From: Chitinophagaceae bacterium
GTDB lineage: Bacteria > Bacteroidota > Bacteroidia > Chitinophagales > Chitinophagaceae
Direction of reading: 5' to 3'
Assembly: GCA_016720775.1 (NCBI GenBank)
Contig: JADKJX010000011.1
Location: 8,896 to 72,895 of the forward strand
Length of the DNA: 64,000 nt
A program made the translations under genes and the position numbers. The notes beneath the pieces are model-generated. The model did not search any database. It saw nothing but the letters and a program-made list of their open reading frames with translations, and was not told the DNA's origin. Below are positions 18,661 through 63,009 of the stretch, in pieces (the stretch's first letter is position 1; every line of letters begins with the position of its first letter).

Positions 18661-18695
18661 GGAATTAAAAATTAAGAATTAAAAATTACGAATGA
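18661..18695. repeat. 7-nt period micro-array directly before the ispE start codon
   Basis: ggaatta aaaatta agaatta aaaatta cgaatga. Confidence 0.7.
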
Positions 18696-18725
18696 TTGCT
18701 GAATTTGTGAAAAACGGAGTGTTTA

Positions 18726-19313
18726 CTATCTCTTCTTCCTGCTCTTGATCTCATCCCGGATGGCAATGGCCCTGATGTAATCTTCGTGATCAAGTACTTC
18801 AGCAAGCAAGGCATCCAGTTCTTCGAGGGATAATGATTTCAGGTCATCGCTGCCACCTGATTCGGTGGTTACCGGTGAGTTCTTTTGTTTTTTCTCTTCT
18901 TCTCCTTCCATCAGTATGCCTGCCTGGTCAAGAATGGTATCGTAGGTATAAATGGGGCAACCGAACCGAACGGCAAGAGCCAGTGCATCGGAAGTTCGGG
19001 AATCAATTTCCACCGTATCATTTGCCGAGCTGCAAACCAGTTTGCTGTAAAAGATTCCTTCCTGCAGGTCGTTTATCACGATCTCATGCAACTCTACATT
19101 AAATGCCATCATAAAATTCTTCATCAGGTCGTGGGTGAGGGGCCGGCTCGGACTCATACGTTCCAGTGCCACGGCAATGGCCTGTGCTTCAAAACCACCG
19201 ATAACGATCGGCAACCTCCGCAAACCATTTATCTCTCCCAACACCACCGCATACGAATGTGTTTGTGTGATGCTGTGCGATAAGGCAACTATTTCCAGTT
19301 CTATTTTTTTCAT
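18726..19313 (-). CDS. Bifunctional nuclease (DUF151) family protein with C-terminal UVR motif
   Basis: LPIVIG.FEAQAIA; RPLTHDL; F...L......EIDSR.SDA.ALA.R; E.Y..A..IRDEI. Confidence 0.9.
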   Translation of the reverse strand: MKKIELEIVALSHSITQTHSYAVVLGEINGLRRLPIVIGGFEAQAIAVALERMSPSRPLTHDLMKNFMMAFNVELHEIVINDLQEGIFYSKLVCSSANDTVEIDSRTSDALALAVRFGCPIYTYDTILDQAGILMEGEEEKKQKNSPVTTESGGSDDLKSLSLEELDALLAEVLDHEDYIRAIAIRDEIKSRKKR

Positions 19314-19343
19314 ATCCTTAAGTCAGAAGCAAAGATAAAAATA

Positions 19344-19373
19344 AAAGCCCTTCAAATTTAAGTGAAAGGCTTT
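19344..19373 (-). terminator. Probable terminator downstream of etfA
   Basis: aaagcccttca-N8-tgaaaggcttt hairpin flanked by A/T runs. Confidence 0.55.
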
Positions 19374-19402
19374 AAATATGAATCTTCCTGATTTTAATCA
19401 GG

Positions 19403-60228: not shown

Positions 60229-60253
60229 TCTGATCTTCCGCAGGTATAAAATA

Positions 60254-60287
60254 AAATTCCCATTCCGTAGAAACGGAACGGGAATTT
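60254..60287. terminator. Terminator between convergent genes (downstream of lon)
   Basis: aaattccc-a-ttccgt-agaa-acggaa-c-gggaattt. Confidence 0.7.
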
Positions 60288-60383
60288 CTTTAACCCTTAA
60301 ACAACCAACATGAATCTGTTGATTAACTTAACCAAAATATATACGGTTAAATGATGCCGATGGTTGTCTGGTTGCATAAAATT

Positions 60384-62783
60384 TTATGTTAAAGCAAGTT
60401 CCAATACCTGTTGCATGGTCTTTACATAATGAAATTTGATGCCTTTGATGTACTGGCTGTTTATTTCCAGCACGTCTTTTTCATTCTGCCAGCACATGAT
60501 GATCTCTTTCAAACCTGCTCTCCGGGCGGCTAATACTTTTTCCTTGATCCCGCCAACAGGCAGAACCTGTCCCCGGAGAGTGATCTCTCCCGTCATCGCT
60601 AAGTAAGGTTTTATTTTGCGGCCGGTGAATGCACTTGCCAGGGCAGAAAGCATGGTGATACCGGCGCTTGGCCCGTCTTTGGGAACAGCACCTTCAGGCA
60701 CATGGATATGAATGTCCTTTTTGTTGAACTCTTCCGGAGCGATGTTTATTTTTTTACAGTTTGCTTCCAGGTAAGTGAGGGCCGTGCTGGCACTTTCCTT
60801 CATCACATTGCCAAGGTTGCCGGTAAGTTTCAGTTCGCCTTTGCCATCGCTCAGTTGTGTTTCTATGAAAAGAATATCGCCACCCACATAGGTCCATGCA
60901 AGTCCAACAGCAACCCCGGGCATGTTTGCGATCTTGTACATATCGTTGCTGTACCTCGGTTTGCCCAATATCTTCTCCACGTCATTATTGGTAATGGTGG
61001 CTTTTAATTTTCCTTTGATCACCAGTTCCTTTGCCTGGTAACGCATGATACTCGCCAGTTGCCTGTCCAGTTCCCTTACACCGCTTTCTCTTGTGTAGTC
61101 CTGGATTATTTTTTCCAGCACATTATCACTTATTTTAAATGCGGCATCTTTAAGTCCGTGCATCTCTTTTTGCTTAGGTATGAGATGCCGTTTGGCTATC
61201 TCTATCTTTTCTTCTACGGCATAACCGCTCAGGTCAATGATCTCCAGCCTGTCTCTTAATGCCGGAGGGATATTGCTGATGTTATTAGCCGTGGCTATGA
61301 ACAGTACCCGGCTCAGGTCGTATTCCAGTTCCAGGTAATTATCATAGAAAGTATTGTTCTGTTCCGGATCTAAAACTTCTAATAATGCGGAAGACGGATC
61401 GCCGCGGTTATCACTTCCTACTTTATCAATTTCATCCAGTATCATCACCGGGTTGCTCGACTTTACCTTACGTATGGATTGTAAAATGCGGCCGGGCATG
61501 GCGCCGATATAAGTTTTACGGTGGCCACGTATCTCGCTTTCGTCATGTAATCCGCCCAAGCTTACCCGTACATATTTCCTGTTTACGGCAGAAGCAATGC
61601 TTTTTCCCAAACTTGTTTTTCCAATGCCCGGAGGGCCGAGAAAACAAAGGATGGGTGATTTCATATCGCCTTTTAATTTCAATACGGCCAGGTATTCTAA
61701 TATGCGTTCTTTTATCTTCTGCATGCCGTAATGATCCTGGTCCAGTATCTTCTTTGCTTTCTTCAGGTCGTACGAATCTTCGGTGTATTCATTCCAGGGC
61801 AGGTCAAGCATCAGGTCGAGGTGATTATACACCACCGAATAATCGGGTGTGGAAGGATGCATGCGCTCCAGTTTCTCAGCGCCCTTGGTGAACATTTCTT
61901 TTGCAGCCGCCGGCCATTTTTTGTTCTCTGCTTTTTTCAGCATGTCTTTTACCTCCGCCACATTATCACTACCCAGTTCATCCTTGATGGCCTTCATCTG
62001 CTGCTGTAAAAAATATTCCCGCTGCTGTTTATCTAATTCTGCCCTTGTTTTATTGGTTACTTTATTTTTCAGTTCGGTGTATTGCAGTTCTGTCTGCATC
62101 AGGTTCATCAGTAATTCGGCCCTTGCTTTTATGTTGCTTATCTCCAGCAGGCGTTGCTTGTCTTTTATCTCGCAGTTCAAATTGCTGCTTACAAAATGAA
62201 TTAAGAAGTTGGGGTTCTCGATATTCTTTAAAATAATGGCAGCTTCGCTGGGCAGGTTGGGAGAGAGGTTAACGATCTGCCCGGCCAGGTCTTTAATACT
62301 TCCTATCATGGCATTAAAATCAGCATCGTCTTTCAACACTTCATCATCAAGCACTTTTATCTTAGCTTTGAAATAAGGATCATCGGTTGTAATCTCCTCA
62401 ATCTTGCAGCGCTTACGTCCCTGTATGATGATGGTGGTGCCCCCATCAGGCATTTTTATCAGCTTCGCAATTTTTGCAACGGTGCCGATATCTTCCAGGT
62501 CGCTTACAGTTGGTTCTTCAACCGTACTGTCTTTTTGCGCTACCACGCCTATCAATTTGTCAGCCTTATAAGCATCGGTTACAGCCTTAATACTCTTATC
62601 GCGGCCAACAGTTATGGGAATTACAACACCCGGGAAGAGTACGGTATTTCTCAACGCAAGAATGGGTATTTCGTCTGGAATCACCTGCCCGTCGGCACTT
62701 CCGTCATCATCTTCATTAAGTGGAATGATGGGCATGAATTCCATTTCATCTTCCGGGCCCTGCAAATAAAACTTGTTATCCAT
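60384..62783 (-). CDS. lon: ATP-dependent Lon protease
   Basis: LRNTVLFP; GPPGIGKTS; GG..DE.EIRGHR.TYIGAMPG; ILDEIDK; PKDGPSAG; TGEI.LRG.VLPVGGIKEK. Confidence 0.97.
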   Translation of the reverse strand: MDNKFYLQGPEDEMEFMPIIPLNEDDDGSADGQVIPDEIPILALRNTVLFPGVVIPITVGRDKSIKAVTDAYKADKLIGVVAQKDSTVEEPTVSDLEDIGTVAKIAKLIKMPDGGTTIIIQGRKRCKIEEITTDDPYFKAKIKVLDDEVLKDDADFNAMIGSIKDLAGQIVNLSPNLPSEAAIILKNIENPNFLIHFVSSNLNCEIKDKQRLLEISNIKARAELLMNLMQTELQYTELKNKVTNKTRAELDKQQREYFLQQQMKAIKDELGSDNVAEVKDMLKKAENKKWPAAAKEMFTKGAEKLERMHPSTPDYSVVYNHLDLMLDLPWNEYTEDSYDLKKAKKILDQDHYGMQKIKERILEYLAVLKLKGDMKSPILCFLGPPGIGKTSLGKSIASAVNRKYVRVSLGGLHDESEIRGHRKTYIGAMPGRILQSIRKVKSSNPVMILDEIDKVGSDNRGDPSSALLEVLDPEQNNTFYDNYLELEYDLSRVLFIATANNISNIPPALRDRLEIIDLSGYAVEEKIEIAKRHLIPKQKEMHGLKDAAFKISDNVLEKIIQDYTRESGVRELDRQLASIMRYQAKELVIKGKLKATITNNDVEKILGKPRYSNDMYKIANMPGVAVGLAWTYVGGDILFIETQLSDGKGELKLTGNLGNVMKESASTALTYLEANCKKINIAPEEFNKKDIHIHVPEGAVPKDGPSAGITMLSALASAFTGRKIKPYLAMTGEITLRGQVLPVGGIKEKVLAARRAGLKEIIMCWQNEKDVLEINSQYIKGIKFHYVKTMQQVLELALT

Positions 62784-62880
62784 AATAATCTCAATATATA
62801 GTCAAAATGTCAAAACACCAGCTATTTAACTGTTTTTTGTGTGGGGATGTATATGGTCAATATTAATGCCGTTTTGTACT

Positions 62881-63009
62881 GAATTAGGAATTTGTAATTA
62901 GGAATTAGGAATTCGGAATTAGACCATTAATTCGGTTACTTCATTTAAAAGATAAAACTGCAATTAGTTCAGAGCCTAATTCCTAATTACAAATTCCCAA
63001 TTACCAAGT
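62881..63009. repeat. Inverted pair of 7-nt micro-arrays (gaattag / ctaattc)
   Basis: 62882-62908 aattaggaatttgtaattaggaattag versus the reverse complement of 62976-63002, aattgggaatttgtaattaggaattag (26/27). Confidence 0.85.

Follow-up and report, generated by a model that had tools for sequence, protein, structure and literature searches.

Hairpin cassettes of 7- and 8-nt tandem repeats, empty or carrying a small gene, in the gene spacers of a Chitinophagaceae bacterium

Introduction

The closest known relative of the elements described here, and the best available model for them, is the gene-carrying intervening sequence found in the 23S rRNA of Coxiella, Leptospira and others, which RNase III cuts out of the transcript without the ends being rejoined. 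The Coxiella element is 428 nt long and ends in a 28-bp terminal inverted repeat, with an open reading frame (ORF) of the S23p family (PF05635) in the loop; its 5′ arm holds three tandem GACAGAT heptamers, a number that varies by strain, and RNase III cuts have been mapped in the stem (PMC4990558). Here we analyze a stretch of 64,000 nt from a Chitinophagaceae bacterium (assembly GCA_016720775.1, contig JADKJX010000011.1, positions 8,896 to 72,895), termed the window below, in which short tandem arrays of 7- or 8-nt units stand in inverted pairs and where a first-pass annotation, made from the letters alone, had proposed a cassette system. Against a family-wide background of heptamer arrays, hairpin cassettes of two related kinds are found in the window. 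The first kind are heptamer hairpins, either empty or with a four-helix-bundle gene, built from locus-specific units and of fixed polarity; the second is a separate class around a GxxExxY gene, with conserved octamer terminal repeats of its own that are present or absent together with the gene.

The link to 23S rRNA intervening sequences had already been drawn in the first-pass annotation, and the inverted repeat and heptamers of Coxiella make it an apt one. In both cases a PF05635 cargo lies within the loop of a long terminal inverted repeat, forms with and without a gene are known, and the occurrence is sporadic (PMC4990558). Unlike the rRNA elements, the cassettes here sit between protein-coding genes in operons and not in helix 25 or 45; strong purifying selection acts on their cargo, in contrast to the decaying ORF of Coxiella; and the RNase III cleavage that was mapped in Coxiella is a step that we only infer here from the likeness. 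The window cassettes are not themselves insertions in 23S (or 16S) rRNA, being located at the etfB-etfA and M14-PIG-L junctions, and the only Rfam matches in the window, which lacks rRNA, are two tRNAs.

A second pattern known from the literature concerns repeats without cargo. In many prokaryotes the longer simple repeats are reported to be most often heptanucleotides, for which polymerase slippage has been proposed as the cause (Mrazek 2007, as cited in PMC4679880), and Beggiatoaceae, Cyanobacteria and a few Bacteroidetes are described as having TAACTGA repeats before start codons, with a proposed role in translation (PMC4679880). The arrays reported here are alike in their period of 7, in head-to-tail copies in excess over chance, in an intergenic position that is often directly before an ATG, and in indels of 7-nt steps, and the TAACTGA unit itself occurs in one related locus (L070). 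However, the repeats described in that work are almost only direct (one inverted set), whereas a third of the arrays here stand in inverted pairs. Heptamer arrays before start codons are thus already known from there, and inverted pairing, arm polarity and a tie to enclosed genes are not reported. Full-text searches on the GxxExxY, PF13366 and PF05635 topics gave no description of arms around these cargo genes.

Among the explanations weighed below, the one that we favour, at a probability of roughly 0.45, is that the cassettes are the mRNA counterpart of gene-carrying 23S rRNA intervening sequences, which would be released by RNase III and whose arms would be kept up at the DNA level.

Tandem Arrays and Hairpins in the Window

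Tandem Repeats Finder (TRF) confirmed the arrays on which the cassette proposal was built, placing those of period 7 at 18663, 20364, 23210, 29273/29292 and 62881/62975 and those of period 8 at 46271, 46705, 46791, 46893 and 55120. The program reported 11 period-7 rows in the window, compared with a mean of 1.3 and a maximum of 3 in 60 dinucleotide shuffles, and 7 period-8 rows compared with a mean of 1.5 and a maximum of 4; this is a 5-8-fold excess for periods 7 and 8, the remaining periods being near expectation. The five inverted pairs first noticed are all there, two filled with a gene and three empty: 20365-20402 / 20794-20831, 29290-29312 / 29361-29383, 55106-55145 / 55174-55213, 62882-62909 / 62975-63002, and a set of arms at 46.3-46.9 kb. 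The gaps between arms are 8, 48 and 52 nt in the empty pairs, and ~400 and 500-600 nt in the filled ones.

Each of the three empty pairs folds as a single long hairpin. The one at 62881-63011 (forward strand; fold z −8.3) consists of GAATTAG heptamers in arms at 62881-62922 and 62975-63011, 28 nt of which are 96% complementary; it lies between the divergent lon and cca-like genes and ends 11 nt before the cca-like ATG (63023). The hairpin of GTTAATTG-type octamers at 55106-55213 (minus strand; z −4.8) occupies the entire 96-nt spacer from the stop codon of a short-chain dehydrogenase (SDR) gene (55203-55205) to the ATG of the gene for S-adenosylmethionine (SAM) hydroxide adenosyltransferase (55104-55106). 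In the third, on the minus strand, a GAATTAA array beside the ybdK-like ATG is followed by a GATACTG arm, the 3′ arm in sense (29273-29325; z −3.2), and the partner arm of CAGTATC units (29361-29396) abuts the RimK-like stop codon (29397-29399). That arms abut the codons of host genes, as the first-pass annotation had it, is borne out by the completely filled 55.1-kb spacer and by the etfB-etfA arms described below.

Two further arrays of the window have no partner. A G-poor heptamer array, TAATTTTTAATTCTTAATTTTTAATTC in sense, stands at 18662-18693 on the minus strand, 4 nt upstream of an ispE-like ATG (18655-18657); it has no partner arm and is unstructured (fold z +1.3), and the junction upstream of ispE in other species holds complete hairpins with different units. 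An identical 18-mer, AATTTTTAATTCTTAATT, occurs twice on the minus strand, at 18664-18681 just before the start codon of the ispE-like gene and at 29274-29291 just before that of the unrelated ybdK-like gene. The other unpaired array (21988-22016, forward strand) is G-rich, consists of GTTTG units and follows immediately on the stop codon of a TPR gene. This array had been paired in the first-pass annotation with the CAAACCT array at 23.2 kb; the pair was rejected as a cassette, for the two lie 1.2 kb apart and the second is an in-frame 21-nt repeat in the linker of tilS (23210-23263, forward strand), where three heptamers encode the seven residues KPQTSNL. The tilS linker is hypervariable in 59 orthologues, and the closest relative (L003) has one repeat copy. 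In another species (L054) a different in-frame tandem repeat, TSTDAH in four copies, stands at the same linker position.

Heptamer Pairs across the Chitinophagaceae

The earlier observation is correct and generalizes well beyond the window, as seen from 80 Chitinophagaceae loci around etfA that amount to 1.33 Mb. Period 7 dominates in this sample, with 269 rows as against 59, 99 and 92 for periods 6, 8 and 9. A reverse-complement partner within 1.5 kb was found for 91 of 277 merged period-7/8 arrays, compared with 2 in a control of reversed sequence and 18 in a control of the complement. The 58 distinct pairs have bimodal gaps, 39 at 8-172 nt and 17 at 390-680 nt, with two more at ~1.2 kb and none in the range from 172 to 390 nt. 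The filled and empty forms that had been proposed for the window are therefore two discrete size classes.

The units are very diverse across loci, with a weak genome-specific vocabulary (identical units 6.8% within contig vs 2.4% between contigs). No 9-mer is common to the loops of non-orthologous empty hairpins and no conserved loop core was seen, which argues that the empty hairpins are not copies of one mobile element. Their first description as similar to miniature transposable elements with inverted repeats (MITEs) had to be given up for this reason: they resemble MITEs in being short and non-coding, with inverted ends and a place in spacers, but they have no common core or termini between loci, and neither a target-site duplication nor a cognate transposase was seen. 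Bare junctions exist, too diverged for the exact ends of the element to be placed; no direct duplication was seen at them.

A fixed polarity is the other hallmark of the heptamer class. Of 34 pairs that lie between co-directional genes, 29 have more G than C in the arm that is upstream with respect to transcription and 3 have less (p = 2.6e-6), and for the empty pairs alone the ratio is 19 vs 3. This upstream arm has G and little C; its downstream counterpart is poor in G and in most cases extends as far as the next start codon. Pairs on both strands of the window obey this rule, therefore it is tied to transcription and not to the absolute strand. This transcription-linked polarity, together with the exact fit to stop and start codons, shows that the heptamer hairpins are not neutral with respect to gene expression.

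It is conceivable in principle that slippage-prone 7-nt simple repeats accumulate as a neutral by-product, the hairpins and the neighboring genes being functionally unlinked. The commonness of heptanucleotides and the slippage proposed for them in the source cited above agree with this, as do the turnover of units between species at the same junction and the 27% of arrays that lie within coding DNA. However, the number of inverted partners (91 vs 2-18 in the controls) and the polarity stand against it, and so do two results given below, namely arms that are conserved where synonymous sites are saturated and arms at 82% of the GxxExxY genes. The partner, polarity and conservation controls have already disfavoured this reading, and we regard it as very improbable.

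Another way to understand the same spacers is to take the G-poor array before a start codon as the primary unit, to which a factor specific for single-stranded RNA, for example ribosomal protein S1, would bind along the lines suggested for TAACTGA repeats; the inverted partner would then be secondary, regulatory or accidental, and cargo genes would merely land in such spacers. Unpaired arrays are indeed mostly G-poor in the sense strand (53 vs 24), arms finish at or close to the ATG, one 18-mer precedes two ATGs of the window, the single array at 18.66 kb is unstructured, and a role in translation has been proposed in print for TAACTGA (PMC4679880). Moreover, six gene-less etfB-etfA loci keep only the G-poor 3′ array proximal to etfA, and none keeps the other array alone. 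What such leader elements leave unexplained, however, is the strong excess of inverted partners, the bimodal gaps, the near-universal arms around cargo genes and the arms that abut stop codons, and the diversity of units argues against one sequence-specific binder. We hold this explanation to be unlikely, and return to the view of the hairpins as intervening sequences of mRNA with the cassette that resembles the rRNA elements most directly.

The Four-Helix-Bundle Cassette between etfB and etfA

Cargo 1 is a gene for a protein of 118 aa on the minus strand at 20398-20754, which belongs to the four-helix-bundle family of 23S rRNA intervening-sequence proteins, as first proposed (TIGR02436, 93.9 bits vs a cut-off of 24, E 7e-27; PF05635, E 9e-25), and which is similar to PDB 2RLD (E 2e-37). 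Its 5′ arm in sense, TAA-TTGATAG-TTGATAA-TTGGTTAA-TGGATAA-TG (20794-20831, minus strand), opens with the etfB stop codon as its first triplet, and its 3′ arm, TAA-ATTATCC-ATTATCC-ACTATTAA-ATTATCC-ATTATT (20363-20400, minus strand), spans from the cargo stop codon to the etfA ATG. The two arms pair with each other in the minimum-free-energy fold.

As expected from the first-pass annotation, the junction is polymorphic. A cargo gene lies between etfB and etfA in 16 of the 80 Chitinophagaceae loci and also in Lacibacter (L. cauensis, L001), and the orthologues at this junction are 68-95% identical to cargo 1, an identity that tracks that of EtfA. Spacers with the gene measure ~450-600 nt; those without it are either 19-30 nt long or hold ~30-390 nt of highly varied small elements, and in one case (L060) the spacer resembles both arms minus the cargo. 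Comparison of cargo 1 with its orthologues gave a proportion of nonsynonymous differences (pN) of 0.08-0.17 and of synonymous differences (pS) of 0.72-0.94, the synonymous sites being saturated; the protein is therefore functional and the insertion old.

The arms have been kept along with the gene. Their mean pairwise identity over 11 orthologous loci is 76% for the 5′ arm and 77% for the 3′ arm, compared with 38% for the adjoining non-coding leader. Where they do change, both may change together: in L070 they now read TAACTGA / TCAGTTA, with a remnant of the old arm left beside the etfA ATG, and in L005 both have expanded, to 53 nt. The complementarity of own arms exceeds that of arms crossed between etfB-etfA orthologues by a modest gain (18.5 vs 15.9), because most of these orthologues have the same unit; L005 and L070 stand out. 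The L070 locus carries TAACTGA at two sites, once in a 113-nt array hairpin (L070 3404-3598) and once in the arms of the etfB-etfA cassette (1062-1613).

Three unrelated four-helix-bundle genes were found between inverted G-rich/G-poor arms of about heptameric units, each with a unit of its own. The further loci lie upstream of dapF (L053), between accB and accC (L133) and in L130, which were the only four-helix-bundle additions from a jackhmmer search over the fetched loci, and scans of viral contigs gave no relatives. In all, inverted heptamer-type arms are present at 4/4 independent four-helix-bundle loci, so that the proposed tie between this cargo and inverted arms extends to other sites. 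The first reading of a transposase-free hairpin cassette with full and empty forms is largely right for this heptamer/four-helix-bundle class. No transposase gene was seen beside the two window cassettes or at those related loci that were examined.

The same protein family (PF05635) also supplies Avd, the accessory protein of diversity-generating retroelements. Neither a reverse transcriptase nor a template/variable repeat stands beside cargo 1, however, whose neighbors are etfB and etfA in the window as well as in the orthologous loci, and a retroelement of this type was discarded as a candidate.

Invertons of Bacteroidota consist of a short segment flanked by inverted repeats. The cassette shares this anatomy, and the arms might accordingly be thought of as sites on which a site-specific invertase acts, turning the enclosed gene around for phase variation. 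Against this, the cargo has the same orientation in 16/16 etfB-etfA loci and in all M14-PIG-L loci, the arms are polar, and no recombinase gene lies nearby; both orientations and an invertase gene would be looked for in an inverton, and neither was found. Metagenome contigs contain no strand-changing joints at 20.36-20.83 kb, although rare forms would escape contigs. We give phase inversion hardly any credence. When the region of 18.4-23.6 kb was compared with metagenome contigs, no clean 7-nt length variants appeared; many other contigs from these communities contain the window's array sequences as well.

The GxxExxY Cassette between M14 and PIG-L

Cargo 2, on the forward strand at 46305-46697, encodes a GxxExxY protein of 130 aa whose true start is 46305 and not 46245. 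The family assignment made at first stands (TIGR04256, 124.1 bits vs a cut-off of 35, E 3.5e-36; PF13366, PDDEXK_3, 113.5 bits), and a sequence search for a solved structure of a GxxExxY protein found none. With pN of 0.12-0.16 and pS of 0.67-0.84 against its orthologues, it joins cargo 1 in being under purifying selection.

The terminal repeats, all on the forward strand, follow the order L1, gene, L2, R1, R2. L1 (46246-46295) begins 10 nt past the M14 stop codon with a mini-hairpin, TTGCTTCGCAA, followed by TTGCCACAGAGGCACAGAAACACAGAAA, that is, GCCAC and octamers. L2 (46702-46729), a second copy of the left arm, begins 5 nt past the cargo stop codon and forms an inner empty hairpin with R1 (CTTCTGTGCTTCCGTGCTTCCGTGGCAA), which lies at 46791-46839 together with AATTTGCGTAAGCAAAT, a duplicate of the PIG-L gene start. 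The stretch 46893-46945 holds R2 and AATTTGCGCAAGCAAAT, with the likely TTG start of PIG-L (46928) and its first signal-peptide codons (MRKQI); the frame of PIG-L was checked with the ORF at 46739-49417. The fold pairs L2 with R1 and L1 (46246-46295) with R2 (46893-46945), with z −4.9. R1 and R2 lie within a 51-nt tandem repeat that takes in the first PIG-L codons (TTG CGC AAG CAA, signal-peptide MRKQ). In the window the right-arm unit is duplicated in tandem together with the first five PIG-L codons (46791-46945), and the nearest relative (L083) has a single copy.

A metagenome scan yielded a sample of 80 GxxExxY loci, 73 of which have both flanks. Upstream and downstream flanks are complementary at 60/73 loci (82%), compared with 1/73 in the control, again as anticipated for cargo genes elsewhere. 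Every arm follows one rule, GCCRC plus two or three octamers CRCNGAWN, and the variants CACAGAAG, CACTGATT, CGCAGATT and CACGAATG follow the lineage of the GxxExxY protein. Many loci have several arm copies on one side, spaced by 50-85 nt. The claim of locus-specific units thus holds for the heptamer class and fails for GxxExxY, whose conserved octamer motif travels with the gene; local homogenization of arms likewise is not valid for all cassettes, which do not form one uniform system.

Counts of the arm motif are 219 in the 345 kb around GxxExxY genes and 13 in 1.26 Mb of Chitinophagaceae DNA from other loci; its 4 matches in the window are all at the cassette. This bears on two mobile systems. 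The cassette recalls repetitive extragenic palindromic (REP/REPIN) sequences with their RAYT genes, where short inverted repeats able to form hairpins, at times several of them to a side, likewise enclose a small gene. However, the tens to hundreds of dispersed copies of a REP/RAYT system are not there, the protein has the PD-(D/E)XK fold and not that of a Y1 transposase, and no recent mobility was found. A MITE or transposon with shared termini and core does not match either, as the GxxExxY arms are a conserved family that occurs only beside the gene.

The M14-PIG-L junction is likewise polymorphic. Orthologous loci L083-L089 have the order M14-GxxExxY-PIG-L, with the cargo in the same orientation in all of them, and in four related genomes (L163-L166) M14 is directly followed by PIG-L at a distance of 25-46 nt, without any trace of arms. 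Filled and bare states, mapped on a host-gene tree for this junction only, are interleaved on the PIG-L tree, which indicates an old insertion and several clean losses. Both window cassettes are old, vertically inherited and missing from some related genomes, and the filled/empty pattern points to repeated clean loss; they are not recently mobile. In the cargo-less junctions the signal-peptide codons of PIG-L are themselves a heptamer array, TTTTTAA in four copies, read as FLIFNFSFLI (L164 and L166 at ~2540-2575, L165 similar). The M14 peptidase gene of the window (43728-46236) seems broken, with a stop codon in frame at about 44457-44459 and a change of frame at about 44900-44945; its orthologues are a single ORF of 835 aa, and the window copy is a pseudogene or an assembly error.

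RNA Release or DNA-Level Element?

The two classes bear differently on whether the cassettes act as RNA or as DNA. Spacers of Chitinophagaceae gather 7-nt arrays, about a third of them as inverted pairs able to form stems of 20-45 bp; some of these stems enclose a four-helix-bundle (S23p) gene, and such units lie inside housekeeping operons, at etfB-etfA in the window and at accB-accC or upstream of dapF elsewhere. If the cassettes are intervening sequences of mRNA, the following course of events may be envisaged. In the polycistronic transcript the arms would pair, RNase III would cut the double-stranded stem, and the cargo RNA would be released. The downstream host gene would be left with a short, G-poor and unstructured leader that suits the Shine-Dalgarno-independent initiation of Bacteroidota, and the insertion would thereby cost the operon little. 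Arm length and unit sequence would shift by slippage in steps of 7 nt, and the complementarity of arms would be restored in DNA by hairpin-templated copying and not by selection on single base pairs. The processing step in this scheme, which the first-pass annotation had also suggested, is proposed by analogy with Coxiella.

Several results weigh against such a release. The entire four-helix-bundle cassette folds only marginally better than shuffles (z −1.5), the independent four-helix-bundle loci are few (n=4), and a stem up to the ATG, if left unprocessed, would prevent translation. Among the mismatches within the best alignments of arms, G:T (wobble in sense) vs A:C number 29 vs 26 for GxxExxY and 18 vs 17 for heptamer hairpins, in total 47 G:U vs 43 A:C; with no G:U excess, there is no sign of selection on RNA pairing as opposed to DNA-level symmetry. 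It looks as if arm complementarity is renewed by a symmetric process at the DNA level, or alternatively, single mismatches in such long stems may be near-neutral. The GxxExxY arms, furthermore, are without the G/C polarity of the heptamer class, and ~22% of GxxExxY genes face against a neighbor, for which a DNA-level element is the better fit.

Such an element would be selfish, with arms that serve as terminal inverted repeats or binding sites in DNA and RNA stems that are incidental. In the GxxExxY case, the protein, of PD-(D/E)XK fold, would recognize its own octamers in the manner of a homing or REP/RAYT-like nuclease, and the gene would spread or persist by cutting and repair. Many of the results above agree: arms are private to GxxExxY genes and vary in step with the protein lineage, the genes occur in many genomic contexts (71 neighbor clusters among 134 flanking ORFs), the GxxExxY protein is of a nuclease fold (PF13366 match), arm mismatches have no G:U bias and GxxExxY arms no transcriptional polarity, several arm copies may cluster on one side as REP sequences do, and gene-less junctions lack arms. 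On the other hand, no near-identical copies or recent insertions were seen and the contexts are old and vertically inherited; bare junctions have no palindromic target and no target-site duplication was seen; the arm motifs, unlike REP sequences, are not scattered over the genome; the fold of the four-helix-bundle protein is not that of a nuclease, and catalysis by GxxExxY proteins is itself only a prediction. The GxxExxY cassette may well work at the DNA level; as an account of the cassettes as a whole, a DNA-level selfish element seems to us a serious though rather unlikely alternative to their being intervening sequences of mRNA.

A wider and more doubtful extension of the mRNA reading is a general class of small selfish genes, which may be called “operon intervening sequences”, whose cargo would bind its own arms, whose RNA would be excised from mRNA and whose arms would be copied through hairpins. 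Four-helix-bundle, GxxExxY and perhaps GIY-YIG genes inside housekeeping operons of Bacteroidota and other phyla would be phenotypically silent, their inverted tandem-repeat arms being excised from mRNA as in 23S intervening sequences. The pentameric four-helix bundle would bind three to five heptamers and the GxxExxY protein its octamers, and arms would be built and kept complementary by DNA hairpin-templated copying with a 7-nt step.

In Bacteroidota, Cyanobacteria and Planctomycetes, few unexplained families of small paralogous proteins are commoner than the four-helix-bundle (S23p) and GxxExxY proteins, and if these are routinely packed in inverted tandem-repeat stems, the two families would have a shared and testable lifestyle. 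The idea, if true, would also unite three subjects so far handled apart, namely the intervening sequences of 23S rRNA, the bacterial excess of heptanucleotide repeats and the repeats that precede start codons. Should excision at the RNA level hold, bacteria would have an intron-like tolerance of genes inserted in operons, and the hairpins would offer ready RNase III processing modules for the engineering of Bacteroidota.

Genomic Context and Other Small Elements

The window matches contigs from activated-sludge metagenomes, and protein identity with Ferruginibacter and other Chitinophagaceae genomes is 74-90%. The genes around the arrays are, in order, the ispE-like and BFN-domain genes (17.8-19.3 kb), etfA, the 118-aa gene and etfB (19.4-21.6 kb), the TPR gene and tilS (21.6-23.5 kb), the ybdK-like and RimK-like ligases (28.2-30.4 kb), the M14 peptidase, the 130-aa gene and the PIG-L deacetylase (43.7-49.4 kb), the SAM hydroxide adenosyltransferase and the SDR (54.3-56.0 kb), and lon and the cca-like gene (60.4-64 kb). 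PADLOC matched neither cargo gene to a defence system.

Two inverted repeats of the window that are not built from tandem units may be terminators, namely a perfect palindrome of 18+18 nt at 9252-9287 and a 20-nt inverted repeat (95%, 43-nt loop) at 51236-51318. A conserved motif, TTTGTTACnGGCAnTT...CATCGTTGTGTCACTCACTTGTRC, lies at 22017-22068 and has 19 more copies in L003-L072, mostly right after a stop codon; its junctions vary between genomes, a nested palindrome interrupts the copy in L036, and Rfam gave no match to the motif. A further family of small elements consists of GC-rich hairpins of the type CCCCTGTCCCC...GGGGACAGGGG, found at 22163-22185 in the window, where the copy adjoins the tilS ATG, and in the etfB-etfA spacers of L072, L049, L018 and L036. 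Inverted repeats enclose small genes of other kinds as well, namely a RayT-like ORF, which has palindromes on its two sides, and a GIY-YIG ORF of ~100 aa (L023 15665-16415; L072 15077-15843; L073 12824-13403), and with these cases the architecture of a small gene in a hairpin may reach further families.

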